Assembly (NCBI GenBank): GCA_002011475.1
Contig: MTNP01000005.1
Coordinates: 15,336 to 79,335, forward strand
Length of the DNA stretch: 64,000 nt
Source: Dehalococcoides sp. JdFR-54
Lineage (GTDB): Bacteria > Chloroflexota > Dehalococcoidia > JdFR-54
Direction of reading: 5' to 3'
Under the pieces are notes generated by a model. The model saw nothing but the letters and a program-made list of their open reading frames with translations, had not been told where the DNA came from and did no database searches. This document shows positions 1 to 53,100 of the stretch, in pieces. The translations under genes and the position numbers were made by a program. Every line of letters begins with the position of its first letter. Position 1 is the first letter of the stretch.

Positions 1-746
1 TATAGGTTGGGCAGGACCAGGACATCGAACTGCTCCGGGTTACGCACCAGTCGCATGCACAGGGTATCGACGATCACATCCTCGAATTCGATGTCGGTAT
101 AGCCCCTGGCCACCTCTCGGGCTACGCTCAAGAAGAGGCCATCGGAGAACTTCAAGATGTTAGCCTTGTGCACGGCGGTAACCTTTTTCCGCCCCTGGGC
201 CCGGGCGTATTCGAAGGCAAAACTCACAATGCGCCGGGTGCCCGCCTCGGAGATGACCTTGAGGCTGAAACCGGTATTGGGACCCAGGGTCTCGCCCCTG
301 GTCTCAGCGATAAGGCTGAGGAGCTTAGCGGTATCCGGGGTCCCGTCCTGGAACTCGATGCCCCGGTACAGGTCCTCGGTGTTCTCCCTGACAATCACCA
401 GGTCCACATTCTCGTAGCGGGAGGGGGCACCCGGATATCTCTTGCAGGGTCGAAGGCAGGCATAGAGGTCCAGGAGCTTGCGCAAGGCCACGTTGACGCT
501 CCGAAACCCAGAGCCTATAGGGGTGGTGATGGGGCCCTTGAGGGCCACCCGGTTGGCGCGGATGGACTCCAGGACATAATCGGGCAACGGCGTGCCGTGC
601 CTGTCCTGGGCCCTATCTCCGGCGTGGGCCAATGCCCACTTGAACCTGACCCCAGTGGCCTCCAGGACCCGCCGCGCCGCCTCGGTCACCTCCGGCCCGA
701 TGCCGTCGCCGGGGATGAAGGTTATATCGTGAATCTTCTCGCCCAT
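1..746 (-). CDS. icd: isocitrate dehydrogenase (NAD(P)+), N-terminal part; 3' end lies outside the window
   Basis: Translation of the minus strand from ATG at 746..744 gives MGEKIHDITFIPGDGIGPEV...KGPITTPIGSGFRSVNVALRKLLDLYACLRP...DLVIVRENTEDLY. This matches the E. coli-type ICDH core ([30 protein letters not shown]). It is absent from the ORF track only because it is truncated. Confidence 0.8.
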   Translation of the reverse strand, partial: MGEKIHDITFIPGDGIGPEVTEAARRVLEATGVRFKWALAHAGDRAQDRHGTPLPDYVLESIRANRVALKGPITTPIGSGFRSVNVALRKLLDLYACLRPCKRYPGAPSRYENVDLVIVRENTEDLYRGIEFQDGTPDTAKLLSLIAETRGETLGPNTGFSLKVISEAGTRRIVSFAFEYARAQGRKKVTAVHKANILKFSDGLFLSVAREVARGYTDIEFEDVIVDTLCMRLVRNPEQFDVLVLPNL

Positions 747-770: not shown

Positions 771-1949
771 TTAACCCCTCAGGGAGGCGACGAGAATATC
801 CCAGTCTCCCGGGGACTGGTCGGACCAGGCTATATACACCTTGTCCCCCCGACCCAGGGCGATGACAGGATCGCCGGACTCGGGCTTGTTATGGCTTATG
901 TTGATGGCCCGGGACCAGTCGCCCCCTTGGGGCTTGGTGGCATACAGGATGTCGTAAGTTTGATCGGGGCCCGGCGGCAAATAGTTCCAGGCCAGGTGAA
1001 GGGTGTCCTCGTCGTCTATGACCAGCCAGGGATAGCCGGCGCTGCCAATAATATCCTGATGGAGGTTGACCACAGGGGCCCAATCCCCGCCTGGCGGCTT
1101 GAAGGTATACATGATGTCCCAGACACCTTGCCATAGGCTATCATCGTGCCATAAAAGGTGGACATTGTTCCGGCTATCCACCGCCAGTCTGGGGCTTCGC
1201 GATTTGCCTTCATTGTTGGAGATATTGATCGGCTTTGACCACTGGCCGTGGGGGGGGGGGCGGCTCATGTACAGGATCTCCCAAGGTGTCTCGCCCTTGG
1301 AGCTCCAGGCCAGGTGCAGATTGCCAGCCCCATCTGCCACCAGGGCAGCATCCTGGGACTCATCGTCATCGAAGGTGAGATTGATGGGCTCAGACCAATC
1401 CCCTCCTTTGGGCTTGAAGGTATAATGAATATCCATGCTTATGCCAGTCCATTCGCTGTAGACCAGGTGCAGGTTGTCCTCCCGGTCGGCGATGATACAA
1501 GCCCTCTGAGAGTGCCGATCGGTCTGGGTCAGGTTCACCGGCTCAGACCAGTCCCCGCCGCTGGGTTTGGTGGCATAGAAGATATCCTCTTTCTCCCTGG
1601 GCGCCGGGGGCCCATGCCACACCAGGTGGAGGGTGTCCTGGCTATCAATGGCCAGGCAAGGCTCGCGGCTGTAACTCTCGGTGCGAGAGAGCCGGACTGG
1701 CTGAGACCACTCCCCACCCCAGGGTTTGGCGGCATAGAAGATATTATAGTGTCCCGGGGTGAGATCATACCAGACCAAGTGCAGGCCGCCCTGGCTGTCA
1801 GCCACAAGGCGAGCCCCCAGGGATTCCCTGGCACTCTGAGAGACATTGACCACCCCCTCCACCGCTGATTTGCAACTGCCCATAACCAGCACCAGGCCGA
1901 TCAGACCTCCGGGGAAAGCGATCCTGGTAAATAGGTTCAAAGCCCCCAT
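771..1949 (-). CDS. secreted lipoprotein with 7 ~47-aa repeats, predicted beta-propeller; paralog A
   Basis: The likely start is the internal Met MGALNLFTRIAFPGGLIGLVLVMGSC (signal peptide plus lipobox). Seven repeats share the motifs [LV]HL[VA]W ... DI[FL]Y[AT]xKPxGGDWSxP[IV]NL[ST]. The start ATG 1949..1947 lies 2 nt after the stop of paralog B. Confidence 0.6.
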   Translation of the reverse strand: MGALNLFTRIAFPGGLIGLVLVMGSCKSAVEGVVNVSQSARESLGARLVADSQGGLHLVWYDLTPGHYNIFYAAKPWGGEWSQPVRLSRTESYSREPCLAIDSQDTLHLVWHGPPAPREKEDIFYATKPSGGDWSEPVNLTQTDRHSQRACIIADREDNLHLVYSEWTGISMDIHYTFKPKGGDWSEPINLTFDDDESQDAALVADGAGNLHLAWSSKGETPWEILYMSRPPPHGQWSKPINISNNEGKSRSPRLAVDSRNNVHLLWHDDSLWQGVWDIMYTFKPPGGDWAPVVNLHQDIIGSAGYPWLVIDDEDTLHLAWNYLPPGPDQTYDILYATKPQGGDWSRAINISHNKPESGDPVIALGRGDKVYIAWSDQSPGDWDILVASLRG

Positions 1950-1951
1950 AG

Positions 1952-3133
1952 CTAGCCGCCCAGCGTGGTGGCGTAGATATCCCAGTGCCCCGGGGACTCG
2001 TCGGACCAAGCGACGTGGATCTTGCCCGCTGGGTCGATGACTATGGTGGAGTCATTGGAGTTGGGGTGGTTGCGGCTGAGGTTTTGAACCTTGGACCAGG
2101 TGCCACCTTTGGCCTTGGTGGTATAGAAGACCTCAAACGGCCCCTCATAGCCTGATTTGAAGTTAAAGCTCAGATGCACGCCATCTTTGTGGTCTATGGC
2201 GATGGCGGGCACAGCGCAGACCCCGTCTATCTCGGCGGTAAGGCTGACCACATACCATTCCTCGCCGGGGGCCTTGGTGGCATATAAAATATCCCAGGGG
2301 GCCGCGGTATCATCGTGCCACACCACATGCACCTTGTTCTCGCTGTCCACCGCCAGCTTGGCCTGCTCGGATCTGCCGATATTATTGGAGATGTTCGCTG
2401 GTTCTGACCAGTCGCCGAACCGGGGCTTATAGACGTAGAAGACCTCCGACGGTGCCTCCTCGGGCCCGGTTTTGGCCCTCAGGTCTTCATGCCACCACAC
2501 CACGTGGATAGTTCCATCACTATCTATGGCCAGGTCCGGCTGGCTGGAGTTGAATTTCTGGTTGCTGATATTTACCGGCTCGGACCAGGTACCGCCTTTG
2601 GGCTTATACATGTAGAAAACATCCCTGCCTATGCCGGTCCACTCCTCATAGACCAGGTGCAGCCCACCCTCCGGGTCGGCCACAATGGTCGGGTTTTGGG
2701 AGTGCTCATCGCTTTGGGTCAGGTTCTCCGTTGGAGACCAGTCCCCCCCTTTCGGCTTGGTAGCGTAGAAGATGTCATGCTTACCATCTGGGGGGCCGTA
2801 CCACACCAGATGGACAGCATCCTCATTATCTACAGTCAGAGACGGGTTTCTGGCCCACTTTGTCTCGCTGGCAATTAGGGCGGGGGAATACCAGCCCTTG
2901 CCCGGGGGCTTATATGAGTAGAAGATGTCGCCGCCTCCCCCGGTGATTGTGGCATCAAACCAGGCCATGTGGAGCGTGCCCTGGCTATCAACGGCCATGT
3001 GGGCGCCGAGGGAGTCCTTCACCGTCTTGGATACATTTGTCACTATGGGCAAAGCAGTTTGACAGCCGGCCACAAGATAAATGATCAGGCCCAGCAACAA
3101 TGCCCAGACGATGGGAAGCGCCACTTTCTTCAT
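1952..3133 (-). CDS. secreted lipoprotein with 7 ~47-aa repeats, predicted beta-propeller; paralog B
   Basis: MKKVALPIVWALLLGLIIYLVAGCQ has a signal peptide and an LVAGC lipobox. Seven repeats (TLHMAWFD, AVHLVWYG, GLHLVYEEW, TIHVVWWHE, KVHVVWHDD, GVHLSFNF, KIHVAWSDES) each carry FY..KPKGG[DT]WS. The start ATG overlaps the leuD stop as ATGA. Confidence 0.65.
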   Translation of the reverse strand: MKKVALPIVWALLLGLIIYLVAGCQTALPIVTNVSKTVKDSLGAHMAVDSQGTLHMAWFDATITGGGGDIFYSYKPPGKGWYSPALIASETKWARNPSLTVDNEDAVHLVWYGPPDGKHDIFYATKPKGGDWSPTENLTQSDEHSQNPTIVADPEGGLHLVYEEWTGIGRDVFYMYKPKGGTWSEPVNISNQKFNSSQPDLAIDSDGTIHVVWWHEDLRAKTGPEEAPSEVFYVYKPRFGDWSEPANISNNIGRSEQAKLAVDSENKVHVVWHDDTAAPWDILYATKAPGEEWYVVSLTAEIDGVCAVPAIAIDHKDGVHLSFNFKSGYEGPFEVFYTTKAKGGTWSKVQNLSRNHPNSNDSTIVIDPAGKIHVAWSDESPGHWDIYATTLGG

Positions 3134-3627
3134 GGCAGTTCAAAATCTCCGTATTTCTTGATATATTCTACCAGACCCCCCTCCTCCAGGATGCGCAGCA
3201 TCACCTCCGCCATCCTGCCCGAGGCGAGCTGGGTGCCCTTGGTCATGTTGTGCACCTTTCCACTGGCTAAGTCTACCTCGAGCTCATCGCCCTCGTCAAT
3301 GGCATCGGTATCGCAAATAAGTAAGGGCAATCCCACATTGATGGCATTGCGGAAAAAGATGCGGGCCGCCGACTTGGCCAGGACAGCGCCCACCCCGGCC
3401 ATCTTGAGGCTCAACGGGGCATGCTCCCGGCTGGAGCCCAGGCCGAAGTTCTTGCCGGCCACCAGGAAATCCCCAGGGCTGAGCCGAGAGACGAAGTCCG
3501 GCCTGAGGTCCTCCAGGACGTGTTTAGCCAGCTCGGGGAGGTTGCTGCGGAGGGGGGCCAACCGCCCGGGCACGATGTCATCGGTGGAGATATCGTCTCC
3601 GAACTTGAAGGCCTTGCCTTTGAGCAT
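3130..3627 (-). CDS. leuD: 3-isopropylmalate/(R)-citramalate dehydratase small subunit (archaeal-type, 165 aa)
   Basis: MLKGKAFKFGDDISTDDIVPGR...GKNFGLGSSREHAP is a typical LeuD/aconitase-swivel small subunit. Confidence 0.85.
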   Translation of the reverse strand: MLKGKAFKFGDDISTDDIVPGRLAPLRSNLPELAKHVLEDLRPDFVSRLSPGDFLVAGKNFGLGSSREHAPLSLKMAGVGAVLAKSAARIFFRNAINVGLPLLICDTDAIDEGDELEVDLASGKVHNMTKGTQLASGRMAEVMLRILEEGGLVEYIKKYGDFELP

Positions 3628-4881
3628 CTATAGGAACCCCCTGGGGTCAGCCACCTCACCGGCCAAGGCCGTGGCCGCGGCGGTGGCGGGGCTGGCCAGA
3701 TAGATAAAGGCCTCAGGGTTGCCCATCCGCCCCCTGAAGTTGCGATTGCCGGTGGAGACACAGGTCTCGCCATCGCCCAAAACCCCCTGATGGACGCCGA
3801 GGCAGGCGGCACAGCCAGGGGGCACCACCCCGGCCCCTGCCTCCACGAGGGTCTCCAGGTAGCCGGCATTCATGGCCTGGATTAGAATCGAGGTCGAGGC
3901 GGGGCCCACGATGAGTCGGGTATCGGGGTGGCGCCGTCTGCCCCTGAGAATGGAGGCGGCCACCGCCAAGTCCTCCAGGCGGCCACCGGTGCAGGTGCCG
4001 ATGAATACCTGGTGCACCTTAGTCCCCCTGAGCTCCTGGACAGGGGCAGTGTTATCCACGGCATGGGGTTTGGCTATCATGGGCTCCAGCCCGGCGACAT
4101 CCACCTCAATAGTGCGCTCGTAGCTGGCATCGGGGTCGGCGGCCAGGGGCCGATAGCCCTGCCCCCGACCATGTTCCTCCAGGTATCCCTTGGTGACCTC
4201 ATCACTGGGGAAGAGGCCCACCTTTGCCCCCGCCTCCACCACCATATTGGCCACGGTGAGGCGGTCGGAGATGCTCATCTTGGAGAGGGTCTCTCCGGTG
4301 AATTCCAGGGCCCGGTAAGTGGCGCCATCGGCGCCGATGCTGCCGATGAGATGGAGGATGAGGTCCTTGGCATAGACCCCCCTGGGGAAATCCCCACGGA
4401 GGCACACCCTAAAGCTTTCGGGCACCCGGAACCAGGTCTTGCCCAGAGCCATAGCCACAGCCACATCTGTGGAGCCCATGCCGGTGGCGAAGGCCCCCAG
4501 GCCCCCGGCGGTGACGCTGTGGGAGTCGGCACCCACCACCACCTCGCCGGGGCTGGCAAACCTCTCCGCCACCAATTGATGACAGATGCCCTCGCCCACC
4601 TCGAAGAGCTGAGCGCCCACCTGGTGGGCGAACTGGCGCAGGAGGCGGTGGTCGTTGGCCAGTTCCCGGTTGGGGCTGGGGGCAGCATGGTCCAGAAAGA
4701 CCACAGTCCGCCCCGGATTGGCTACCCGCTGAAAGCCGCTGGCCCGAAACTGCCTTACCGTCAAAGGACCGGTGGTATCCTGGATGAAGGCCAGGTCTAC
4801 CCTGGCGATAACTATATCTCCGGCCTGGGCGTCTTCCCCCGAGTTCCAGCTCAGGATCTTCTCGGCCAGTGTCTTGCCCAA
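3628..4881 (-). CDS. leuC: 3-isopropylmalate dehydratase large subunit (archaeal-type, 417 aa)
   Basis: Aconitase-family large subunit: MGKTLAEKIL..., GSTDVAVAMALG, IGTCTGGRLEDL, CxxC Fe-S ligands. It is immediately adjacent to leuD. Confidence 0.85.
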   Translation of the reverse strand: MGKTLAEKILSWNSGEDAQAGDIVIARVDLAFIQDTTGPLTVRQFRASGFQRVANPGRTVVFLDHAAPSPNRELANDHRLLRQFAHQVGAQLFEVGEGICHQLVAERFASPGEVVVGADSHSVTAGGLGAFATGMGSTDVAVAMALGKTWFRVPESFRVCLRGDFPRGVYAKDLILHLIGSIGADGATYRALEFTGETLSKMSISDRLTVANMVVEAGAKVGLFPSDEVTKGYLEEHGRGQGYRPLAADPDASYERTIEVDVAGLEPMIAKPHAVDNTAPVQELRGTKVHQVFIGTCTGGRLEDLAVAASILRGRRRHPDTRLIVGPASTSILIQAMNAGYLETLVEAGAGVVPPGCAACLGVHQGVLGDGETCVSTGNRNFRGRMGNPEAFIYLASPATAAATALAGEVADPRGFL

Positions 4882-4900: not shown

Positions 4901-6847
4901 CTAGCCGATAATGGCCAGGACATCGCCCTTGGAGGCTTTGGCCCCGGGGGCCAGGCTGATCTGCTTTACCACGCCATCGGCGGGGGCAGGCAGTGTCGAT
5001 TGCATCTTCATGGCCTCGAAGATGACTATGGTATCGCCGGCCTTTACCGGGGTCCCCTCCTGCACCTCATAGCGAATGACAATGCCGGGCATGGGCGCCA
5101 GGATCGGGATGCCGCCTTTGACAGGGGGGGCCGGGGATGGTGCCGGCGCCGCCTCTTCCCTGACCTCAGCCTTGGGCGGGGCCGGGGCTGGTGGTGGTGG
5201 GGAAGGGGCCGCCGACAGCCTTGCCGGTGTCGCCGAGACCGCTGGTGGGGCCGGGGTGCCCCCCACCGGCTCCACCTCTACCTTGAAATACTCATCGTCG
5301 ACGAAGACGTTGAAGGCGCGCAACGCCGCCCCCTTGGCGGGCACCTCCTTCTCCACCTTCTCCACCAGCTTGCCCGCCTTGGCCTTGGCCACCAGCTCAT
5401 CCTCTCGCTTCACGTCCTCCATGGTCTTGGGCCTGACCTCGGGGGGAGGCTCCTCCAAACCGTATTTCCAGCGCAGGAAGCGCATCCCGGTGGTGGGATA
5501 AAGGGCATAGGTGAGGACATCCCCGATATCCCTGGCGATACCCTTGGTGGCCTCCTTGGCCTTATCCAGCTCCGGCTCCAGCATGTCAGCAGCCCGGCAG
5601 GTGATGGGCTTCTCGCCCCGCTTGTAGCCCTTGAGCACGATCTTCTGGACCTCAGGGTCGATGGGGGCGGGGGGGCGGCCATACAGCCCGTAGACATAGT
5701 CCTTGACCTGGTCGGAGACCATCTTGTAACGGCCGAAGAGGACATTCTGCACCGCCTGGATGCCCACGATCTGGCTGGTGGGGGTGACCAGGGGTGGGTA
5801 GCCCAGCTCCCGGCGAGTCCTGGGCAGTTCCTCATAGACGTCCTGAAGGCGGTCCAGGGCATCGGCCTCCCGAAGCTGGGCCACCAGGTTGGTGGTCATG
5901 CCGCCGGGTATCTGGTGCATCAGCACCCCGGTGTCGATGACGGCCATCTTGGTGGTATCCAAGAAGTCGCGATATTTGGGGGCGATGGACTCGAAATACT
6001 GGCCCAGCTTGAAGAGGTGGGCCAGGTCCAGCCCGGTATCCCGGGGACCGCCCTGTAAGGCCACCACTATGGGTTCCACCGCCGGTTGAGAGGAGCGCAG
6101 GGCGAAGGGGGCCAGGGCGGTACAAACCATATCCACACCAGCCTCGGCTGCCCTTAAATAGGCCATGGAGGCCATGCCGCTGGTGTAATGGGTGTGGAGG
6201 TGCACCGGTATCCTCAGGGCCGCCTTCAGGGCTTTCACCAGCTCGTAGGCATCGTCGGGGGCGATGAGCCCGGCCATGTCCTTGATGCAGAAGGAATCCG
6301 CCCCCATATCCTGGATGATGAGGGCCTTCTGGACGAAGTAGTCTATGTTATAAACCGGCCCGCCCAGCTTGGGCTGGGTCAGGGAATAGCACAGGCAACC
6401 CTGGATGTGCTTGCCCACCTCCTTGATGGCCTTGAAGGGTGCCTCGAAGTTGCGCTCGTCGTTGACGGCATCGAAGACGCGGAAGACGTCGATGCCCACC
6501 TCGGCGGCGTGGTGGACAAAGGCCCTGACCACATCGTCGGGGTAGTTACGGTAGCCCACCAAGTTCTGGCCGCGGAGGAGCATCTGGAGGGGGGTCTTGG
6601 GCATTAGCCTCTTCAGGGTGCGCACCCTGTCCCAGGGGTCCTCGTTGAGGAAGCGGGTGGCCACATCGAAGGTGGCACCCCCCCAGACCTCCATGGACCA
6701 GAACCCCGCCTTGTCCATCTCCTCGGCGATGGGCTCCATGTCTATGGTGCGCAGGCGGGTGGCCAGGGTGGACTGGTGCCCGTCACGCAGGGTGGTATCG
6801 GTAATTTTCAGGGGGTTTATGGCTTTGGCTGCTTCCGTCCTCGTCAT
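4901..6847 (-). CDS. carboxyltransferase 5S subunit fused to C-terminal biotinyl domain (oxaloacetate decarboxylase alpha / pyruvate carboxylase subunit B / transcarboxylase 5S-1.3S type)
   Basis: The N-terminal part has the TIM-barrel motif ITDTTLRDGHQS and the C-terminal part has the biotinylation motif EAMKM after a Pro/Ala-rich linker. The likely start is MTRTEAAK (ATG 6847..6845) with RBS GGAAAGGAA 8 nt upstream. No biotin carboxylase gene is in the window. Confidence 0.85.
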   Translation of the reverse strand: MTRTEAAKAINPLKITDTTLRDGHQSTLATRLRTIDMEPIAEEMDKAGFWSMEVWGGATFDVATRFLNEDPWDRVRTLKRLMPKTPLQMLLRGQNLVGYRNYPDDVVRAFVHHAAEVGIDVFRVFDAVNDERNFEAPFKAIKEVGKHIQGCLCYSLTQPKLGGPVYNIDYFVQKALIIQDMGADSFCIKDMAGLIAPDDAYELVKALKAALRIPVHLHTHYTSGMASMAYLRAAEAGVDMVCTALAPFALRSSQPAVEPIVVALQGGPRDTGLDLAHLFKLGQYFESIAPKYRDFLDTTKMAVIDTGVLMHQIPGGMTTNLVAQLREADALDRLQDVYEELPRTRRELGYPPLVTPTSQIVGIQAVQNVLFGRYKMVSDQVKDYVYGLYGRPPAPIDPEVQKIVLKGYKRGEKPITCRAADMLEPELDKAKEATKGIARDIGDVLTYALYPTTGMRFLRWKYGLEEPPPEVRPKTMEDVKREDELVAKAKAGKLVEKVEKEVPAKGAALRAFNVFVDDEYFKVEVEPVGGTPAPPAVSATPARLSAAPSPPPPAPAPPKAEVREEAAPAPSPAPPVKGGIPILAPMPGIVIRYEVQEGTPVKAGDTIVIFEAMKMQSTLPAPADGVVKQISLAPGAKASKGDVLAIIG

Positions 6848-6878
6848 ATCTCGTTCCTTTCCGCAGGCCGGGACCAAG

Positions 6879-7076
6879 TCAGAGGCGCAGGCTTTGTCCC
6901 CTCTTGCGGGCTGGCCAGAAGAGGGGCCTCAATTGCCGGTGGCGGCCACCGATCCGCCACGGGCTGAAGGCCAGGACCGGAGGGGGGACCGCCGGCCTGA
7001 GGGCTCTCGCCTCCATCTCCATATAGGCAGAGACCGCGCTCACGATGGCAGCGCTGAGCTTGGCCCTATCCCTCAT
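6879..7076 (-). CDS. possible small (65 aa) subunit ORF between the 12S and 5S genes (epsilon/delta-type small subunit?)
   Basis: ATG lies 18 nt after the 12S stop and the stop lies 31 nt before the 5S start. The N-terminal part is hydrophobic (LSAAIVSAVSAYM). The RBS is weak and no family can be assigned from sequence alone. Confidence 0.25.
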   Translation of the reverse strand: MRDRAKLSAAIVSAVSAYMEMEARALRPAVPPPVLAFSPWRIGGRHRQLRPLFWPARKRGQSLRL

Positions 7077-7094: not shown

Positions 7095-8645
<1,551 letters not shown>

Positions 8646-8708
8646 AGCGCCCGGGCTCCAGTTGTGAATGAAAGCACACATAATACTAGCATAAATTGGG
8701 GCCGCTTT

Positions 8709-9620
8709 TCAAGGGCGGGGCTGCTCGCCACTGGCAGCCAGTGTCTCCTTTTGGGCGATGGCCTCGGCCAGTTCCAGCAGCCTTTTGGCCCGCTCCGCCA
8801 CCGGGACATCCACCAGCTTCCCATCCACCGAGGTGGCTGCCGAGCCCCGGGCCTCCGCCTCCTGGAAAGCGGCCAGCACCCTGCGGGCGTGCTCCACCTC
8901 CTCGGGGGAGGGGGTGAAGAGGCGATTCACTGGCTCCACCTGGCTGGGGTGGATGAGGCAGCGGCCCTTAAAACCCATCTGCCGCGACCACTTGGTATCC
9001 TCGATGAGGCCGGCCTCGTCCCGGAAGTTCACATATGGGGTATCCAGCGGGATGACCCCGGCGGCCATGCCGGCAATGGCGGTAATGGTGCGAGGGTAAA
9101 TCAGCTCGATGCCCTGCTCGGAGCGCACTATGCCCATATCTAAGGTATAGTCGTCGGCGCCGAAGGCTATGGCGGAGATGCGAGGGGAGGCGGAGGCGAT
9201 TTCGAACACATTTACTATGCTCTTGGCGGTCTCGATCCAGGCGGCGATCTTTATCTTGCCCACCTCCACCCCCCGCTCCCTCTCCAGGGCCTCTATCATC
9301 CCCTCCGCCCGGTGTATGTCCTGGGCCGAGCTGGGCTTGGGCAAGGTGATGCCGTCCAGTCGAGGGCCCACCACCGCCTTCAAGTCGGCCTCGGCCAGGC
9401 CGGAGACCAGCGAGTTGATGCGCACATACACCTGCTGCCCCTTAGGGGGCATGATGTCTTTTAGGAGCTCCGCTATCTGGCTGCGGGCAGTCTCCTTCTC
9501 GACAGCGGGCACCGAGTCCTCCAGGTCGAAGATGAGGGCATCGGCGGGCTGCTGAAGGGCTTTCTGGATCATATCGGGTCGGTTGCCGGGGACGAAGAGC
9601 AGGCTTCGCAGCGGTCGCAT
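8709..9620 (-). CDS. citE: HpcH/CitE-family acyl-CoA lyase (citrate lyase beta / (methyl)malyl- or citramalyl-CoA lyase-like)
   Basis: MRPLRSLLFVPGNRPDMIQKAL...DLEDSV...IHPSQVEPVN are CitE/Mcl hallmarks. Confidence 0.75.
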   Translation of the reverse strand: MRPLRSLLFVPGNRPDMIQKALQQPADALIFDLEDSVPAVEKETARSQIAELLKDIMPPKGQQVYVRINSLVSGLAEADLKAVVGPRLDGITLPKPSSAQDIHRAEGMIEALERERGVEVGKIKIAAWIETAKSIVNVFEIASASPRISAIAFGADDYTLDMGIVRSEQGIELIYPRTITAIAGMAAGVIPLDTPYVNFRDEAGLIEDTKWSRQMGFKGRCLIHPSQVEPVNRLFTPSPEEVEHARRVLAAFQEAEARGSAATSVDGKLVDVPVAERAKRLLELAEAIAQKETLAASGEQPRP

Positions 9621-9760
9621 TTCCAGATTCCCTCCGCCACAGTGGCTTCTGGCCTAGTATGCGCTATGCCATCGCCATTGTCAAGGAGCCCCCAGAACCG
9701 CCCACCCATTTGCCCCGCACGGGCCTATGTGTTAAACTAAACCCCCTGGAGAGAGGGATT

Positions 9761-11194: not shown

Positions 11195-13417
11195 ATGTCC
11201 AGATATATAGCGACTTCGGCCATCAGGGGCGCCCGAGATATCGTGGCCGAGGCCGAAAGGCTACTCAAGGAGTCCCTGGAGACCATGGGGCCCGATACCC
11301 CGGTGGCCTTCCCCAATACCGCCTACTATCTGCCCGTTATTTACGGCATCACCGGCCATAAGGTGGAGAGGCTGGCCGACCTCCAGTGGCCCCTGGACCA
11401 CGCCAAGTCCCTGCTGCCCCCGGTGCCCCGACAGAGCCTATGGCTTCCCTATCTGGGGGAGACCCTGGATGCCGGCATGGCTACCCTGTTCGCCGAGGAG
11501 ATCATCGAGGGCATCCGCTTCGCCAAGGGCGAGCAGCCCGAGGTGCGCAACGGCTATACCTTCAACGGCCCCATCGACGATGTCCAGATGCGCGCCTGGG
11601 GTATCCAGATGGTGGACGGGCGTATGCCCGGATTTGCCGCCATCATCGGGGCGGCCAAGAGCAATGAGGTGGCGGTGAAGATCGTGCGCGAGCTCCAGTC
11701 CAAGGGACAGCTCGTCTTCCTCTCCGGCAATGTCAATGGCCGCTCCATTGTGGACCAGCTCCTGGAGGAGGGGGTGGAGCTGGGCTATGACACCTTTACC
11801 GTGCCCTTCGGCTCCGATACCATCTCGGCCATTTACGCCCTGGGCTACGCCACCCGCGCCGGCATCAGCTTCGGCGGCTTCAAGCCGGGCGATGCCCGGG
11901 CCAATCTCCTATATAACAAGTTCCGCTGCTTTGCCTTCGCCCTGGCCCTGGGGCAGGTGGATGACCTCAAATATGCCACCGCGGCTGGGGCTATTAACTA
12001 TGGCTTCCCGGTGGTGGCCGATACGGTCATCCCCAACATCCTGCCCGTGGGCATCACCCAGTATGAGCACGTGGTGAGCATGCCCTTCGACGACATACCG
12101 GGCAGGGACGACCTGGAGCGGGCAGAGAGGCTGGTGCAGCGCTGCATCGAGATCCGGGGCATCAAGGTCAAGATCGCCAAGGTTCCCATCCCCGTGGCCT
12201 ATGGCCCGGCCTTCGAGGGCGAGGTGGTGCGCCGCGAGAACCTGCGCCTCGAGTTCGGCGGCAAGGGCGGGCTGTGCTTCGAGTGGCTGACCATGCGGGA
12301 TATGGACGAGGTGGAAGACGGCAAGATCACGGTGGTCGGCCCCGAGCTGGATGCCTTCGAGGTGGGGGCAAAGGTGCCCCTGGGCATCATGGTGGATGTG
12401 GCCGGCCGCAAGATGCAAAAGGACTTCGAGCCGGTGCTGGAGCGGCAGATCCACCACTTCGTCAACGGGGCTGAGGGGGTGCAGCATCAGGGTCAGCGGG
12501 ACATCACCTGGATCCGCATCAGCAAAGCGGCCGCCGATAAGGGGTTCAAGATAAAGCACCTGGGGGACATCCTCCATGCCAACTTCCACAACCTGTTCGG
12601 CGCCATCGTGGATAAGATCCAGATAACCCTTTATACCGAACAGGATAAGGTGGCCGAGCTCATGGAGCAGGCCCGAGAGGTCTACCGGGAACGCAATAAG
12701 CGCATCGCCGACCTCACCGATGAGTCGGTGGACACCTACTATAGCTGCACCCTGTGCCAGTCCTTCGCCCCCACCCATGTCTGCATCATCAACCCGGAGC
12801 GGGTGGGGCTATGCGGGGCCTATAACTGGCTGGACTGCCGGGCCGCCTTCGAGATCAACCCCACCGGCCCCAACCAGCCTGTGCCCAAGGGCGAGGTGCT
12901 CGACCCGGTGAAGGGCGAATGGGAGGGGGTCAACAAGTTCGTCTACGACCATTCCCAGATGAAGGTGAACCGGTTCACCGTTTACTCCATAATGGATGCC
13001 CCTATGACCACCTGCGGCTGCTGCGAGTGCGTTATGGTGCTCCTCCCCGAGGCCAATGGCTTCATGATCGTCTCCCGCGACGACTATGGCATGACCCCCT
13101 GCGGCATGACCTTCACCACCTTGATGAGCACCGTGGGCGGCGGCCAGCAAACCCCGGGGATGATGGGCCACGGCAAATACTACATCCTGAGCAAGAAGTT
13201 CATCCCCGTGGAGGGCGGCCTCAAGCGCGTAGTGTGGATGTCCAAGAACCTCAAGGAGGAGATGGCCGAGGAGCTCCAGGCGGCCTGCGAGCGGGAGGGC
13301 GTGCCCGACCTGATGGATAAGATAGCTGACGGCACCATTTGCACCGATATCGATGGCCTCCTCCCCTTCTTAGAGGAGAAGGGACATCCCGCCCTCACCA
13401 TGGAGTCGCTAATATAA
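11195..13417 (+). CDS. acsB: acetyl-CoA synthase catalytic subunit (A-cluster protein)
   Basis: 740 aa. [4Fe-4S] ligands are in CTLCQSFAPTHVCIINPERVGLCGAYNWLDC, and the Cys-Gly-Cys Ni-bridging motif is in TTCGCCEC. Confidence 0.9.
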   Translation: MSRYIATSAIRGARDIVAEAERLLKESLETMGPDTPVAFPNTAYYLPVIYGITGHKVERLADLQWPLDHAKSLLPPVPRQSLWLPYLGETLDAGMATLFAEEIIEGIRFAKGEQPEVRNGYTFNGPIDDVQMRAWGIQMVDGRMPGFAAIIGAAKSNEVAVKIVRELQSKGQLVFLSGNVNGRSIVDQLLEEGVELGYDTFTVPFGSDTISAIYALGYATRAGISFGGFKPGDARANLLYNKFRCFAFALALGQVDDLKYATAAGAINYGFPVVADTVIPNILPVGITQYEHVVSMPFDDIPGRDDLERAERLVQRCIEIRGIKVKIAKVPIPVAYGPAFEGEVVRRENLRLEFGGKGGLCFEWLTMRDMDEVEDGKITVVGPELDAFEVGAKVPLGIMVDVAGRKMQKDFEPVLERQIHHFVNGAEGVQHQGQRDITWIRISKAAADKGFKIKHLGDILHANFHNLFGAIVDKIQITLYTEQDKVAELMEQAREVYRERNKRIADLTDESVDTYYSCTLCQSFAPTHVCIINPERVGLCGAYNWLDCRAAFEINPTGPNQPVPKGEVLDPVKGEWEGVNKFVYDHSQMKVNRFTVYSIMDAPMTTCGCCECVMVLLPEANGFMIVSRDDYGMTPCGMTFTTLMSTVGGGQQTPGMMGHGKYYILSKKFIPVEGGLKRVVWMSKNLKEEMAEELQAACEREGVPDLMDKIADGTICTDIDGLLPFLEEKGHPALTMESLI

Positions 13418-13437
13418 GGACACGCCAAATTTAAAAA

Positions 13438-13467
13438 ACAGGGGTCGAAGGGCGACCCTTGTTTTTT
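13438..13467 (+). terminator. intrinsic terminator/attenuator hairpin between acsB and acsD
   Basis: AAAAAACAGGGGTCG-AAGGG-CGACCCTTGTTTTTTGG: a 10-bp stem (one G.U), 5-nt loop, and A-tract/T-tract flanks. It could work on either strand, since acsB is plus-strand and no convergent gene exists. Confidence 0.6.
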
Positions 13468-13506
13468 GGGTTGAAGGTCTTAGTTTTTCGGGAAAGGAGA
13501 CCAAGG

Positions 13507-14448
13507 ATGGCTGTGGAAGTGCCCCTGGAGAAGTGGACCGGCAAGATACGGGAGGTGGAGCTGGGGGGCAATGGCCGGAAGAGCCTGGTGGTTGGCGGCG
13601 CAGCCACCCTTCCCTTCCTCCATTTCGAGGCTGCCATCCCCCACCGGCCGGCAGTGGCCATGGAGGTCCAGGATATATACCCTGGGGGCTGGTCGGCCCA
13701 TCTGGAGGCGGCCTGGGGGGATGCCTTGAAGGACGCCGGGGCCTGGGCCAGAAAGGCGACTGAGTTCGGCGCCGACCTCATTTGCCTGCGCCTGGTCAGC
13801 GCCCACCCCGAGTCAGGCAATACCGGCGCCGCCCAGGCCAAGGCCACCGTGGACAAGGTCCTCTCCGCCACTGACCTGCCTCTGATCGTGCTCGGGCCGG
13901 AGGTGCCCGAGAAGGATAACGAGGTTTTGGTAGCCGCCTCGGAGGTGGCCAAAGGGCAAAGGGTGGCCCTGGGCCCCTGCCTGGAAAAGAACCACCGCAC
14001 CATCGCCGCCGCCTGCCTCGCCGATGGCCATGTGGCCATCGCCAAGACCCCCATCGAGATCAACCTGGCCAAACAGCTCAACATCCTCCTCTGCGATGTG
14101 GGCATGCCCGCCAACTCCATCCTCATGGACCCCACCACCGGTGCCCTGGGCTACGGCCTGGAGTATACCTACTCGGTGATGGAGAGGCTTCGCCTGGCTG
14201 CCCTCATGGGCGACGGCATGACGGCCATGCCCATGATCTGCACCGTGGGCGAGGAATCGTGGCGGCAGAAGGAGTCCAGGGCAGCCCAGGGCGTGCCCGC
14301 CAGCTGGGGCGATATCGAAAGGCGCTCCCTGGTCTGGGAGGAGCTCACCGCCCTGAGCCTGCTGCACTCCGGCGCCGATATCGTGGTGCTGAGGCACCCT
14401 GGGGTGGTGGAGAGGGTCAAGGCCGCCATAGACCAGCTCATGGCATAG
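13507..14448 (+). CDS. acsD: corrinoid iron-sulfur protein small subunit
   Basis: Start MAVEVPLEKWTGKIREVELGG with RBS GGAAAGGAG. It has the TIM-barrel CFeSP delta family features. Confidence 0.85.
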   Translation: MAVEVPLEKWTGKIREVELGGNGRKSLVVGGAATLPFLHFEAAIPHRPAVAMEVQDIYPGGWSAHLEAAWGDALKDAGAWARKATEFGADLICLRLVSAHPESGNTGAAQAKATVDKVLSATDLPLIVLGPEVPEKDNEVLVAASEVAKGQRVALGPCLEKNHRTIAAACLADGHVAIAKTPIEINLAKQLNILLCDVGMPANSILMDPTTGALGYGLEYTYSVMERLRLAALMGDGMTAMPMICTVGEESWRQKESRAAQGVPASWGDIERRSLVWEELTALSLLHSGADIVVLRHPGVVERVKAAIDQLMA

Positions 14449-14463
14449 CGAGAGGAGGCAACC

Positions 14464-15816
14464 ATGGCATTAACCGGGATCGAAATCTATAAGCTCCTGC
14501 CCAAGACCAACTGCAAGAAGTGCGGATTCCCTACCTGCCTCGCCTTCGCCATGAAGGTGGCCCAGAAAGGGATAGAGATCACCGCCTGCCCCGACCTCAC
14601 CGAGGAGGCCAGGGGCGCCCTGGAGGCAGCGGCCCGGCCCCCCATCCGCCTGGTCACCGTGGGCAGCGATGAGCACAAGTTCGAGGTGGGCAACGAGGTA
14701 GTATTGTTCCGCCACGAGAAGACCTTCTACCATCCCCCGGCCCTTATGGTGAGGGTAAAAGACAACCTGGCCGCTGAGGAGCGGGATAAGCTGGTGAGTG
14801 AGGTGTCCCGCTACAGTGTGGAGAGGGTGGGCATAGTGATGAGCGCCGATGGCTTCGCCATCGACAACGACTCCCGGGATGCGGGCAAGTTTGCCGCCTG
14901 CGTAGAATCGGTCACCTCCCAGGTGAAGTCGCCCTTGGTGCTCATGGCCACCGACCCGGCGGCTATGGAGGCGGCCCTGGCCAAGGCGGCCGGGCGCAGG
15001 CCCCTTATCTATGCCGCCACCAGGGACAACCTGGATAGGATGGTGGAGCTGGCCAAGACATATAATTGCCCCCTGGCGGTGTCGGAGCCGGCAGGCCTGA
15101 GCGAGCTGGCCGAACTCACCGAGAGGGCAGCCCAGGCAGGCGTAGAGGATCTGGTCATCGACCCCGGGGCCACTGGCTTCAGCGCCTCGTTGCAGGTGCT
15201 GACCCAGCTCCGTCGCCTGGCCATAAAGAAGATGTTCCAGCCCCTGGGCTATCCCATAATCACCTTCCCCGGTGACGGGGCCACATCGGTGGAGGAGGAG
15301 GCCATGCTGGCTGGCCAGCATATCGCCAAATATGCCGGGATCATCGTGCTCAACCACTTTTCCCCGGCCACCCTGTACCCTTTGCTCACCCTGCGCCTCA
15401 ACATCTACACCGACCCCCAGAAGCCCATTCGAGTGCAGCCGGGCATCTATCAGATCGGCGAGCCCAAGGACTCCAGCCCCCTGTGCGTCACCACCAATTT
15501 CTCCCTGACCTACTTCTCCATTGCCGGCGAGCTGGAGTCCAGCGGTTTCCCCTCCTGGCTCTTGGTCTGCGATACCGAGGGCCTTTCCGTGCTCACCGCC
15601 TGGGCCGCTGGCAAGTTCGATGCTGACAGGATCGCCAAGTCGGTGAAGGAATACAAGGCCAACGAGAAGATCAACCATAATAGCCTCATCCTCCCCGGCA
15701 AGGTGGCGGTGCTCAGGGGCGAGCTGGAGGAGGAGCTGCCCGACTGGAAGATCAGGGTGGGGCCATTGGAGGCCATGGATGTGGGCAGCTATCTGAAGAC
15801 TCAGTGGAAGCCCTGA
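14464..15816 (+). CDS. acsC: corrinoid iron-sulfur protein large subunit
   Basis: N-terminal [4Fe-4S] motif CKKCGFPTCLAFA, and 450 aa as in Moorella AcsC. Confidence 0.9.
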   Translation: MALTGIEIYKLLPKTNCKKCGFPTCLAFAMKVAQKGIEITACPDLTEEARGALEAAARPPIRLVTVGSDEHKFEVGNEVVLFRHEKTFYHPPALMVRVKDNLAAEERDKLVSEVSRYSVERVGIVMSADGFAIDNDSRDAGKFAACVESVTSQVKSPLVLMATDPAAMEAALAKAAGRRPLIYAATRDNLDRMVELAKTYNCPLAVSEPAGLSELAELTERAAQAGVEDLVIDPGATGFSASLQVLTQLRRLAIKKMFQPLGYPIITFPGDGATSVEEEAMLAGQHIAKYAGIIVLNHFSPATLYPLLTLRLNIYTDPQKPIRVQPGIYQIGEPKDSSPLCVTTNFSLTYFSIAGELESSGFPSWLLVCDTEGLSVLTAWAAGKFDADRIAKSVKEYKANEKINHNSLILPGKVAVLRGELEEELPDWKIRVGPLEAMDVGSYLKTQWKP

Positions 15817-15817
15817 T

Positions 15818-16606
15818 TTGAGCCCGAAGACGGTTACCATAGCCATCGCTGGCAAGGGGGGCACGGGCAAGACCACCATCGCCGCCCTGCTGGCCAGCAT
15901 ATTTTCCCAGAAAGGGGTGGTGCTGGCCATCGACGGCGACCCCAGCACCAATCTGCACCTGTCCCTGGGCCTGTCCCTAGAGAATACGGTGGGGGCGGTG
16001 CGAGAGGACATGCTCCGACAGGCGAGGGGGGGAGGCCCCAGCCTGGGCATGGCCAAGCTGGACTATCTGGACCTGAAGATCCACGAGTGCCTAGTGGAAT
16101 CCACGGGCATCGATCTTCTGGCCATGGGCAGGCCGGAGGGGCCGGGGTGTTATTGCGCCGCCAACAATATGCTGCGCACCTGTATCGACCGCTTGGCCAG
16201 TAACTACGATTATGTGGTCATCGACACCGAGGCGGGTATGGAGCACATCAGCCGCCAGACCACCCGGGATGTGGACATCCTGCTCCTCATCTCCGACCCC
16301 ACCCTGAGGGGCGTCATCAGCGCCGTCCGGATGAAGGAGCTCATCGGGGAGCTCCGCACCCGGGTGGGTCGGATCGCCTTGGTGATAAACCGCCAGGATG
16401 GCGAGCTGTCGCCGGAGGTCCTGGGGGTGATCCGGGACCGGGGCCTGGAGCTGGTGGGCTCCCTTCCCAACGACCCCCACATGGCCGGGCTGGAAGCCCG
16501 GGGGAGACCCCTGACCGAGCTACCCCAGGATTCGCCCCTGCGGGTGGGCGTGCTCGCCATAGCCCGCCGGCTGGGCCTGGTCGAGGCCGAAAGCAAAGTC
16601 AGCTAG
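15818..16606 (+). CDS. cooC: CooC/AcsF-type Ni-insertion ATPase
   Basis: Deviant Walker A IAIAGKGGTGKTT plus a CxC region. The TTG start lies 1 nt after the acsC stop. Confidence 0.85.
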   Translation: MSPKTVTIAIAGKGGTGKTTIAALLASIFSQKGVVLAIDGDPSTNLHLSLGLSLENTVGAVREDMLRQARGGGPSLGMAKLDYLDLKIHECLVESTGIDLLAMGRPEGPGCYCAANNMLRTCIDRLASNYDYVVIDTEAGMEHISRQTTRDVDILLLISDPTLRGVISAVRMKELIGELRTRVGRIALVINRQDGELSPEVLGVIRDRGLELVGSLPNDPHMAGLEARGRPLTELPQDSPLRVGVLAIARRLGLVEAESKVS

Positions 16607-16618
16607 AGGAGAAAGGCT

Positions 16619-17539
16619 ATGTTCCTTATTGGAGAGTCCATCCATGTCATCTCGCCCAAGGTCAGGGCAGCCATCGAGAGCCGGGACAAGGCCCTTATCC
16701 AGGAACTGGCCCAGCGCCAAGTGGAGAAAGGAGCCCATTGCCTGGACCTGAACATCGGCCCCCAGAAGAAGGCCGGCACCGAGGTCATGCCCTGGATGGT
16801 TGAGACCGTCCAGGAGGTGGTCGATGTCCCCCTCTCCCTGGATACCACCAATGTCGCCGCCATGGAGGCTGGCCTTCAGGTGTGCAAGAAACAGGCCATC
16901 ATCAATAGCACCGATGCCACCCCGGAGCGCCTCCACGCCCTGATGCCCCTGGCCGCCAAGTACAATGCCCGGATCATCGCCCTGTCCTTGGCAGCCACCG
17001 GCCTGCCCACTAGCGCCGATGCCCGCATCACGCTGGCCTCAGAGAACCTGCTGCCGGCAGCTATGGAATACGGGGTGCCCTATGAGAATATTTACCTCGA
17101 CCCCCTGGTGCTCACCGTCAACGGCAACCAGGACCAGGCCCTGGCCACGGTGGAGGCGGTGCGCCTCTTCAAGCAGATGACCGACCCCCCCTGCCTCACC
17201 ACCTGCGGCCTGTCCAACGTCTCCAATAGCTGTCCCAATGAACTGCGCTCCCTGCTCAACCGGGTGTTCCTGGTGATGCTCATGGGCGCCGGCCTGGACT
17301 CGGCCATCGCCGATGCCCTGGATGACGAGCTTCTGGAAACCATCCGCATTGTGGAGAGCCGAGATACCTCCACCCCCAAGGGCCAGCTCTATATAGACCT
17401 CTTCGATACCTACCAAGCGGGCGGGGAGTTCGACCCCAGCGGCGTAGATATGAGCAACCCCGAGCTCAGCGACATCGTCAAGACCATAAAGGTCTTCGAG
17501 AACAAAACCCTGTACGCCCACGGCTACCTGAGGCTATAG
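16619..17539 (+). CDS. acsE: methyltetrahydrofolate:corrinoid/iron-sulfur protein methyltransferase
   Basis: MFLIGESIHV...GAHCLDLNIGP follows the Moorella MeTr pattern MLIIGERIN...GARALDLNVGP. Confidence 0.85.
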   Translation: MFLIGESIHVISPKVRAAIESRDKALIQELAQRQVEKGAHCLDLNIGPQKKAGTEVMPWMVETVQEVVDVPLSLDTTNVAAMEAGLQVCKKQAIINSTDATPERLHALMPLAAKYNARIIALSLAATGLPTSADARITLASENLLPAAMEYGVPYENIYLDPLVLTVNGNQDQALATVEAVRLFKQMTDPPCLTTCGLSNVSNSCPNELRSLLNRVFLVMLMGAGLDSAIADALDDELLETIRIVESRDTSTPKGQLYIDLFDTYQAGGEFDPSGVDMSNPELSDIVKTIKVFENKTLYAHGYLRL

Positions 17540-17541
17540 GT

Positions 17542-19215
17542 CTACCTCCGCCCGAACTCCTTAGCCAATTGGCCGGAGCTGAGGTGGATCAGGGTGGGGC
17601 GGCCATGGGGGCAGGTGTGGGGCTGGGCGGTCTTCTCCAGCTGGCGCACCAGCCCCTCCATCTCCTCGGCCTTCAGCACCTGGCCGGCCTTAACCGCCCC
17701 GTGGCAGGCCAGGGCTACCACCAGCCTCTCCTCCCAGGAGGCAGGAGATTCCTGGGCCAGGCCATCCAGGAGCTCCTGGATGGCCTGGCCCAGATTCTCT
17801 CTGGGCAATACCGCGGGCACTGCCCGCACCAAGTAGGTCTTGGGCCCGAAGGCCTCAATATCGAAGCCGTATCTGCGAAGGGTAGCCCCCTGCCCCCTCA
17901 GAATGGCCTCCTGCTGGGGACTCACCTCCAGCGTCACCGGCTCCAAGAGCCCCTGCACCTCGGCACCCCGTTGCTCTAGCTGCCCCTTCAGCCTCTCGAA
18001 GAGCACCCGCTCATGGGCAGCGTGCTGGTCGATGAGGTACAGCCCCTCCGGCCCCTCGGCAATGATATAGCTCTGGGAGAGCTGCCCCAAGACGCGCAGC
18101 AGGGGCAGGGGTTTGGCTGAGGCCTTCCTTTCCACCTGGGCCTCCGCCCACAAAGGAGGGCTTTCCACCGAGGCTGTAGCCACAGGCGTTGGCGCAGCTC
18201 GCTGGATTTGGGGCACCGGCGTGTGCTCCAGAAGGGTTTGCTGCACTGCCTGGTAAACAGCCCTGAATACCTTCCCCTCTTCGTGGAAGCGCACCTGGCT
18301 CTTGGTGGGGTGGACATTGACATCCACCTGGGCGGGGGGCAGGCTCAGGTTGATTATGGCGATGGGGTGTTTCTCGGGAGATATCATCCCCCGGTAGGCA
18401 TCCTCCACCGCCCGGGCCAGCATGGGGCTGCTTATCCAGCGCCGGTTGACGAAGAGGCGCAGGGAGCTTCGACTGGACCGGCTCAGCCAGGGGGGCCCCA
18501 CCAGCCCGGAGACGACGGGCGGCCCGACCTCCCCAGTGGGGGGCTGGGGTATCTCCAGCAGGGCCTGGGCCGTCTCCAGGCCGAACACAGCCAGGCAGAC
18601 ATCTCGGAGGGAGCCTGTCCCCGGCGAGGTCAGGCTGGCCCGGCCCTCCAGCATCAGGTCGAAGGCCACCTCAGGGAAGGCCAGGGCGTAGTCGGCCACC
18701 AGGGTGGCGATATGGCTGTTCTCGGTGGCGGTGGACTTGAGGAACTTGAGACGGGCGGGGAGGTGGCGGAAAAGATGGCGCACCGTCACCGTAGTCCCCA
18801 CCGCCCGCGCCTGGCTCCTGCGGGTTATGACCCCTTCCCGCAGGCTGAGCCTGGCAGCCACCGGATTGTCAGCGGTGCGGGTGACCATGTCGACCTCGGC
18901 CACGGCGGCGATACTGGGCAGGGCCTCACCGCGGAAGCCCAGGCTGGAGATGGCCCCCAGATCGGCGAGGTCGCTGATCTTGCTGGTGGCATGGCGCTGG
19001 AAGGCAAGCTCCACCTCCTCAGGGGATATGCCCGAGCCATTGTCGCTCACCCGGATGAGGCTCACCCCTCCGCCCCAGGCCTCCACCGTTATCCGAGTGG
19101 CTCCAGCATCCAGGGCGTTCTCCACCAGCTCCTTGACCACCGAGGCAGGGCGCTCCACCACCTCCCCAGCGGCGATTTTGGCCACCAGCTCTGGCCCAAG
19201 GACGTGAATAGGCAT
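17542..19215 (-). CDS. mutL: DNA mismatch repair protein MutL
   Basis: GHKL ATPase N-terminus: IAAGEVVERPASVVKELVENALDAG, ITVEAWGGG, SDNGSGI. Confidence 0.9.
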   Translation of the reverse strand: MPIHVLGPELVAKIAAGEVVERPASVVKELVENALDAGATRITVEAWGGGVSLIRVSDNGSGISPEEVELAFQRHATSKISDLADLGAISSLGFRGEALPSIAAVAEVDMVTRTADNPVAARLSLREGVITRRSQARAVGTTVTVRHLFRHLPARLKFLKSTATENSHIATLVADYALAFPEVAFDLMLEGRASLTSPGTGSLRDVCLAVFGLETAQALLEIPQPPTGEVGPPVVSGLVGPPWLSRSSRSSLRLFVNRRWISSPMLARAVEDAYRGMISPEKHPIAIINLSLPPAQVDVNVHPTKSQVRFHEEGKVFRAVYQAVQQTLLEHTPVPQIQRAAPTPVATASVESPPLWAEAQVERKASAKPLPLLRVLGQLSQSYIIAEGPEGLYLIDQHAAHERVLFERLKGQLEQRGAEVQGLLEPVTLEVSPQQEAILRGQGATLRRYGFDIEAFGPKTYLVRAVPAVLPRENLGQAIQELLDGLAQESPASWEERLVVALACHGAVKAGQVLKAEEMEGLVRQLEKTAQPHTCPHGRPTLIHLSSGQLAKEFGRR

Positions 19216-25968: not shown

Positions 25969-26031
25969 AAAGCCACTCCCCTCCGAGACATCAATTGACC
26001 AGGCCTCATGGTGGCGGAGGGGGTGGGATTC

Positions 26032-53008: not shown

Positions 53009-53100
53009 TTGCATTTGCAACATAGCATATGGGACAGGGTTTGTCAACCGCCCCGATTGACCGCCGGGGGTGATGGAGCCATCAGTGCCGCTGGGGGCCC

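Follow-up and report, generated by a model that had tools for sequence, protein, structure and literature searches.

Tandem predicted lipoproteins with a modelled seven-bladed propeller fold inside a tricarboxylic acid cycle gene cluster of Dehalococcoidia

Among the described proteins related to the bacterial neuraminidase repeat (BNR), the Pfam family BNR_4 includes the seven-bladed polysaccharide lyase (PL) FoRham1 of family PL42 (PMC8377490), and BNR_4-like domains have been proposed as possible adhesive domains (PMC9210967). Dehalococcoides mccartyi has a highly abundant putative S-layer protein which carries a BNR/Asp-box repeat annotation and whose transcript tracks core catabolic genes (PMC5102406, PMC6646388). 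Here, we describe two adjacent genes, paralogues A and B, from a 64,000-nucleotide (nt) stretch of Dehalococcoides sp. JdFR-54 (contig MTNP01000005.1, positions 15,336 to 79,335), referred to as the window. The genes lie inside a tricarboxylic acid (TCA) cycle and transcarboxylase cluster. We consider it fairly probable that A and B are non-enzymatic cell-surface lipoproteins with a binding or envelope-structural function, which are expressed via a housekeeping operon without having a metabolic role. Coordinates refer to the whole window; L001 is the same contig reversed.

Paralogue B (1952..3133, minus strand) encodes a prolipoprotein of 393 amino acids (aa) with a BNR_4-type beta-propeller, as judged from its open reading frame (ORF), Pfam, AlphaFold2 and a hidden Markov model (HMM) of the blades. 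Paralogue A (771..1949, minus strand; ORF, AlphaFold2 and 46% identity to B) encodes a prolipoprotein of 392 aa, identical to P0002. The two ORFs adjoin and are 45–46% identical over their full length, i.e., they are the tandem paralogues described in the original prediction. Its reading of both junctions also agrees with the sequence. The ATG of B (3133-3131) overlaps the TGA (3132-3130) of the upstream gene, which encodes the 165-aa Aconitase_C protein of the aconitase-family small subunit (acnS), and this ATGA overlap (3130..3133, minus strand) recurs in related genomes. At the other end of B (1947..1954, minus strand), the TAG stop at 1954-1952 is followed by the two nucleotides ct and by the ATG of A at 1949. 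NCBI prefers a TTG at 1940 as the start of A (P0002), 11 nt past the stop of B instead of 2. A third candidate, TTG 2009, is unlikely, as it would create a 46-residue signal and a 58-nt overlap with B, while the signals of the orthologues have about 15–24 residues.

The motif [LIV]H[LIVMF]x[WYF] recurs seven times per protein, 51–59 residues apart, and downstream of most copies are D-I-F-Y-x-x-K-P-x-G-G-x-W-S and N-[ILV]-[ST]. The blade consensus is x-P-x-[LI]-A-V-D-x-x-G-x-[LIV]-H-[LV]-V-W … D-I-F-Y-x-x-K-P-x-G-G-x-W-S-x-P-x-N-[ILV]-[ST]. Because a blastp self-comparison did not list the internal repeats, an HMM was made from blades 1–6 of A alone. This HMM matches exactly seven units in B, with E-values from 1e-6 to 8e-21, while the top score against 200 shuffles of B is 4.4 bits. 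Therefore, the repeat is real and has a period of about 52 aa. The seven repeats proposed earlier are thus borne out by the motif counts in both proteins and by the HMM in B, but the proposed length of about 47 aa is too short, as the actual period is 51–59 aa. The Asp-box-like hairpin was a partly correct call: the C-D hairpin is like the bacterial neuraminidase repeat (SxDxGxTW), but Pro or Ala replaces the Asp, and the degenerate motif reads [ST]-K-P-x-G-G-x-W.

In the blade alignment, the seventh unit is without its last strand. The place of this strand D of blade 7 is taken by the segment just past the lipobox, IVTNVSKT in B and GVVNVSQS in A. AlphaFold2, given an alignment of 32 sequences, models B with seven four-stranded blades and 28 strands (predicted local distance difference test, pLDDT, 91.4; predicted template modelling score, pTM, 0.89) and A with seven blades and about 27 strands (pLDDT 91.5, pTM 0.88). 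In the models, blade 7 is completed by an N-terminal strand, residues 31–33 of B and 30–35 of A, and the signal peptide of B is a separate helix. According to these confident models, A and B would each form one closed seven-bladed beta-propeller, the fold that had been proposed from the repeats. The tripeptide N-[ILV]-[ST] is found in strand D of most blades and in the N-terminal closing strand, giving five sites per protein, and is kept family-wide, archaeal members included. It matches the N-glycosylation sequon and may be purely structural.

The proteins, which had been left without a family, can be placed in the BNR_4/BNR_2 sialidase-like propeller superfamily, near the NCBIfam family NF053835. 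B passes the gathering cutoffs of BNR_4 (PF15892; 50.8 bits, cutoff 27.3) and BNR_2 (PF13088; 37.9 bits, cutoff 31.4), and A stays below both (24.6 and 22.0 bits, respectively). NF053835, the 'PDIAV motif-containing lipoprotein', is the nearest curated family and likewise consists of lipoproteins with a repeated P-D-I-A-V(-D) strand. This corresponds to the strand-A motif P-x-[LI]-A-V-D of A and B; blade 4 of B reads QPDLAID. However, B scores 72.4 and A 44.8 bits, below the curated cutoff of 90, and the match spans profile positions 5–222 of 458, i.e., the signal peptide and the first blades. The model is also longer than B, 458 positions compared with 393 residues. Literature searches on NF053835 or the PDIAV family found no paper, and those on seven-bladed BNR lipoproteins nothing relevant. 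A PDB sequence search with B alone gave no meaningful match, and a search with the family profile gave a marginal match (E 0.01) like glycoside hydrolase (GH) family GH145.

An exhaustive profile search against 1.84 billion cluster representatives finds 67,023 relatives at E <= 1e-3 and 6,324 at E <= 1e-30. The family is thus not rare; the 50 matches of the first search were an artefact of word indexing. Many relatives are 1,000–6,000 aa long with several propellers each. The repeat type is very common and functionally uncharacterised, and A and B add two members to a known kind of surface propeller.

The lipoprotein signals were judged by sequence pattern: a positive N-terminal region, a hydrophobic core and a lipobox [LVI][ASTVI][GAS]C. 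The signal of B (3062..3133, minus strand; MKKVALPIVWALLLGLIIYLVAG followed by C24) is canonical, with MKK, a hydrophobic core and L-V-A-G-C24, and the model has a helix at residues 5–22. The signal of A (1872..1949, minus strand; …LIGLVLVMGS followed by C26) has a non-canonical lipobox, and pLDDT is low for residues 1–25. On re-inspection, the signal peptide and lipobox Cys claimed for both ORFs are present. The Cys is invariant in 11 of 11 aligned relatives, and all members of the clade with this operon context have a lipobox. In distant relatives, the signals are of the signal-peptidase-I type; a hydrophobic N-terminal signal is present in nearly all full-length relatives. For many of the distant ones, the predicted cleavage is directly ahead of the closing strand W-[ST]-x-P-x-N-[IV]-S, and many carry type IX secretion system (T9SS) sorting domains, FlgD_ig, CarboxypepD_reg with dockerin-like tails, or C-terminal membrane anchors. 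The anchors vary, and therefore the same propeller is displayed outside the cell by several devices. From these sequence patterns, A and B are predicted to be exported and lipidated.

Alternatively, the hydrophobic N-terminus could remain uncleaved and unlipidated, so that the propeller would scaffold soluble TCA enzymes in the cytoplasm. The position of the genes among those of cytoplasmic enzymes and the weak signal peptide of A would fit such a scaffold. However, the lipobox Cys is invariant in the clade, relatives have signal-peptidase-I-type signals, T9SS sorting domains or dockerin-like tails, and mature relatives begin exactly at the closing strand. We regard a cytoplasmic scaffold as extremely unlikely.

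A third paralogue, P0011 (G4O03_07850), is found on another contig of the same metagenome-assembled genome. It has 581 aa, a non-lipoprotein signal and the same propeller, and its C-terminus consists of CarboxypepD_reg and a dockerin-like region. Together with a leucine-rich repeat (LRR) dockerin protein described below, it hints at a surface assembly of the cohesin-dockerin type in this organism.

The order acnS, propeller gene and isocitrate dehydrogenase-family gene (icd) is found in three lineages: the window, L175 and a group of loci from sediment metagenomes (L002-L007, L010, L093-L095). The sediment group has a single propeller gene between acnS and icd, followed by mdh-fumA-sdh, and the ATGA or GTGA overlap is conserved in L002, L004-L007, L010, L093 and L095. 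In L175 (Icd 82% identical), acnS is followed by a 152-nt spacer, an A-type propeller gene and icd, without an overlap. L008 (Icd 84% identical) keeps the propeller-icd pair behind a different upstream gene and has lost the aconitase neighbour. L001 was discounted as an independent syntenic locus, being the window's own contig. Three Dehalococcoidia contigs (L172-L174), whose Icd is 74–75% identical to that of the window, contain the same cluster with icd directly after acnS and no propeller gene. The split between the propeller-bearing and the propeller-less clusters is found in 197 of 200 bootstrap replicates of a neighbour-joining analysis of five concatenated cluster proteins.

None of the 155 other homologous loci (80 from GTDB species representatives and 75 from metagenomes) has a TCA context. 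The neighbours of these homologues, 148 proteins, represent 132 different Pfam families, and among them there is no conserved genomic partner of the wider family; four are DctM. The original prediction pointed out that surface proteins are unusual inside a string of central-metabolism genes and proposed to check the synteny in relatives. The context is real and the order is kept, but within one clade; L172-L174 and the 155 other loci are without it.

The simplest reading is one old insertion in the ancestor of one Dehalococcoidia clade, after which the core enzymes would have diverged to about 72% identity. A single insertion is proposed because the sister lineages have the same cluster without the propeller gene. 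In the identity matrix, A groups with P0004 and P0005 (49–52%), while B is 46% identical to A and 38–39% to P0004 and P0005. Either the duplication predates the P0004 and P0005 lineages, with a later loss of B, or B has diverged faster.

Two other variants of the cluster were seen. In L092 (1768-4957; also in L116), the large aconitase subunit is cut short and its C-terminus frameshifted, and there is no small subunit. The propeller gene is intact and is preceded by an extra 194-aa lipoprotein with a near-identical signal peptide. Either a rearrangement or a chimeric assembly could account for this. The propeller-less relative L173 has a malic enzyme (malic and Malic_M; 8085-9446) in the malate dehydrogenase slot, and the Sdh genes are absent from its cluster.

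The propeller gene has a ratio of nonsynonymous to synonymous substitutions (dN/dS) of 0.14–0.26, and a pseudogene or junk ORF is rejected on this ground. Its dN is 2.5–6 times that of the flanking enzymes, and the identity between lineages is 36–52% for the propeller compared with 63–84% for the neighbouring genes.

The gene is under purifying selection, three lineages keep the acnS-propeller-icd order, and the window and the sediment group, but not L175, also retain the ATGA or GTGA overlap. This could also mean that the propeller is a working extracytoplasmic partner of the pathway. One possibility is a subunit or assembly factor on the outer face of the succinate dehydrogenase/fumarate reductase membrane complex, another an organic-acid receptor. 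A precedent is Ycf48, a BNR-type lipoprotein with seven blades that serves as an assembly factor of photosystem II. However, neither A nor B matches the Ycf48/HCF136 family (Pfam PSII_BNR, PF14870) at E <= 0.1, and the sister lineages run the same cluster without the propeller. Conversely, L008 has the propeller without the aconitase neighbour, and in L092/L116 the aconitase genes look broken beside an intact propeller gene. Thousands of relatives occur elsewhere without such a context, the propeller evolves far faster than the enzymes, and the same cluster contains an unrelated secreted LRR-dockerin gene. Altogether, a pathway partner seems very unlikely. Marginally smaller still is the chance of a true pathway component, be it a partner of the complex or a surface receptor that supplies the cycle with organic acids; its conserved position and, in the window and the sediment lineages, its ATGA coupling to the aconitase subunit would then be under selection for stoichiometric co-production.

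Conservation within the propeller was analysed in ten clade members. Positions conserved in at least 90% are nearly all repeat positions shared by most blades: the D ending strand A, the H and W of strand B, the I/F/Y/K of strand C, the G-G-x-W-S hairpin, the N-x-S in strand D and the S-x-x-P ahead of strand A. The only blade-specific conserved residues are R95, N250, W280, N324, D361, S377 and W384, and no catalytic set can be recognised among the conserved positions. By structural element, conservation is lowest in the B-C loops (0.44), followed by the D-A loops (0.56), while the strands and the A-B and C-D loops reach 0.62–0.70. Propellers are conventionally taken to bind ligands on the face made by the B-C and D-A loops, and in A and B this same face would then be the ligand-binding one. 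The pattern of conservation and rates fits a binding or structural protein exposed on the surface better than it does an enzyme.

An enzyme is the alternative that has to be considered here. A and B might be extracellular carbohydrate-active enzymes that cut an external or envelope glycan, either seven-bladed BNR_4 lyases (PL42/GH145, PL25/PL24) or sialidase-like hydrolases. Sialidases (GH33) are recognised by a six-bladed propeller, an arginine triad, a Tyr/Glu nucleophile pair and an acid/base Asp. A and B have seven blades, a single blade-specific conserved Arg (R95) and no conserved Tyr/Glu pair. The anterior pocket of the PL42 (formerly GH145) and PL25 lyases holds two neighbouring His, one of them catalytic, and an Arg for neutralisation (PMC8377490). 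At the level of the alignment, there is no blade-specific conserved His in A and B, and all conserved His are the repeat His of strand B. No blade-specific conserved His/His/Arg set or Arg triad is seen there, and R95 and D361 are the only charged residues among the blade-specific conserved ones. Furthermore, the usual pocket face is the least conserved one, the identity to all these enzymes is 10–17%, and lectins and CylK fit the fold equally well or better. An enzymatic function is therefore rather unlikely.

For surface lipoproteins that bind or build rather than catalyse, the following scenario can be suggested. The propeller gene would have entered the acnS-icd junction once, in the clade ancestor, been kept under purifying selection and been duplicated here to B and A. 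Both would be carried on the operon transcript; ribosomes ending the aconitase small subunit would re-initiate at the overlapping ATG of B, and A would follow within 2–11 nt. In the monoderm envelope assumed for Dehalococcoidia, the precursors would be exported, acylated at the lipobox Cys and tethered to the outer face of the cytoplasmic membrane. The repeated D/H/W/Y/W residues would hold the fold, while the variable face would contact an external ligand or an envelope partner. The operon would provide growth-linked expression only, so that the surface protein is made in step with core metabolism. We infer a binding and not a catalytic role, and no metabolic role.

Several points weigh against this scenario. 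The exact junction and the overlap are kept across about 28% divergence of the core enzymes, which could reflect a functional tie to the operon. At 10–17% identity to known enzymes, the lack of a recognisable catalytic set is still compatible with an enzyme, and B passes the cutoff of BNR_4, a family with polysaccharide lyases. Finally, the lipobox of A, V-M-G-S-C26, fits the relaxed pattern only, its hydrophobic core is weak and its start codon is ambiguous.

The cluster consists of 17 same-strand genes, with every gap <=63 nt. Its first gene encodes a C-C lyase like HpcH/CitE (8709..9620). It is followed by an mmdA/12S-like carboxyl transferase (7095..8681), a 65-aa ORF called as a gene between the two carboxylase genes (6879..7076, equal to L001:4865-5062) and a fusion of a 5S-type carboxyltransferase and a biotin carrier (PYC_OADA and Biotin_lipoyl; 4901..6877), all on the minus strand. 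The lyase and both carboxylase genes were assigned by Pfam and NCBIfam. Next are the 417-aa large subunit of the aconitase/LeuC/HacA family (3628..4881, minus strand; Pfam Aconitase 3.5e-101, NF001614 573.8 bits, cutoff 385) and the aconitase/LeuD-family small subunit (3130..3627, minus strand; Pfam Aconitase_C, TIGR02087 192.9 bits). After B and A comes the isocitrate/isopropylmalate dehydrogenase-family gene (Iso_dh), of which the window contains the 5' part (1..746, minus strand). Its ATG at 746 is 24 nt past the stop of A, and the gene continues beyond the window (full gene L001:11207-12307). The order then continues with malate dehydrogenase, fumarase alpha, the LRR-dockerin protein, SdhA, SdhC, SdhD, SdhB and fumarase beta.

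The original prediction regarded the upstream pair as leuCD. A co-located hydro-lyase pair is indeed present, but not a leucine operon: these are HacA/LeuC-LeuD-family two-subunit hydro-lyases in a TCA/transcarboxylase cluster, and from this context the enzyme is probably the cycle's aconitase. The best promoter-like site, TTGACA-17-CATACT (9656..9684, minus strand; 10 of 12 consensus positions), is located immediately upstream of the first gene, and a terminator-like site directly downstream of the last; both are consensus matches only. A weak promoter-like site is also present at 3299-3270. Between 1 and 9620, no terminator-like site is found on the minus strand. Gene spacing suggests that B and A are co-transcribed and translationally coupled with acnS.

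The 65-aa ORF is conserved (49–65 aa) in most related clusters, including L002, L005 and L006, and was not called in L173. Its motif is AAITAAIYSYMELE…SPWR. It has no match in Pfam or NCBIfam and may belong to the carboxylase complex as a small subunit. The LRR-dockerin gene (L001:14088-15278, beyond the window start) is located between fumarase alpha and SdhA and encodes 396 aa with a signal-peptidase-I-type signal, eight LRR_4 and a C-terminal dockerin. It is absent from this position in L002, L005, L006 and L172 and is a second secreted-protein insert in the TCA operon. Among the 17 genes, the G+C content at third codon positions is lowest in B, A and the LRR-dockerin gene, at 0.70–0.73 (LRR-dockerin 0.70) compared with 0.78–0.87.

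A Wood-Ljungdahl cluster of acetyl-CoA synthase (ACS) and carbon monoxide dehydrogenase (CODH) genes (11195-17539, plus strand) is divergently adjacent to the TCA operon, with SurE and YflT genes in between. It contains ACS beta, two CdhD-type subunits, a CooC-like ATPase and a pterin-binding methyltransferase. Further on, a subtilase gene (19362-21212, plus strand; Peptidase_S8, a fervidolysin-like prodomain and CarboxypepD_reg) is located between mutL (17542-19215, minus strand) and mutS (21241-23781, plus strand). By its domain type, the subtilase is probably exported, another such gene among housekeeping genes. The only Rfam matches in the window are a glycine riboswitch aptamer (52921-53015, minus strand; 68.3 bits) and a tRNA gene (26015-26102, minus strand).

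With this analysis, two 'hypothetical proteins' of uncultured Dehalococcoidia gain a family, a predicted fold and a likely cell location, and their puzzling metabolic context can be traced, in the reading proposed here, to one old insertion and not to a metabolic role. Tens of thousands of clusters make up the wider repeat family; many are giant surface proteins with several propellers, and none has been characterised. For work on structure and binding, a small lipoprotein with a single propeller, as B is, would offer a handy starting point. The locus also illustrates clearly how surface-protein genes can lie embedded in a housekeeping operon.

Among the known systems, the BNR_4/BNR_2 enzymes (PL42/GH145, PL25 and sialidase-like) are 10–14% identical to A and B. 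Unlike these enzymes, A and B have the hairpin without the Asp and no recognisable catalytic residues; neither has an added carbohydrate-binding module, and A is below both family cutoffs. The seven-bladed lectins (PLL/PHL of Photorhabdus, BP39L and CV39L) are soluble and not lipoproteins, unlike A and B. The latter are not members of the PLL/BP39L lectin family NF052349 (cutoff 400 bits), to which A scores 30.8 bits and B has no match. CylK has an extra N-terminal calcium-binding domain and its active site is at the domain interface. The C-terminal propeller of CylK (PDB 7ron/7roo) shows 13% identity, and CylK is a biosynthetic enzyme of the cytoplasm. The D. mccartyi S-layer protein (UniProt Q3Z6N3) comes from the same bacterial class as A and B and is a BNR-annotated surface protein, a likeness by annotation. 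Unlike A and B, it is not located inside a metabolic operon (PMC5102406, PMC6646388). By analogy, it would nevertheless be a precedent for a surface protein that co-varies with core catabolism.

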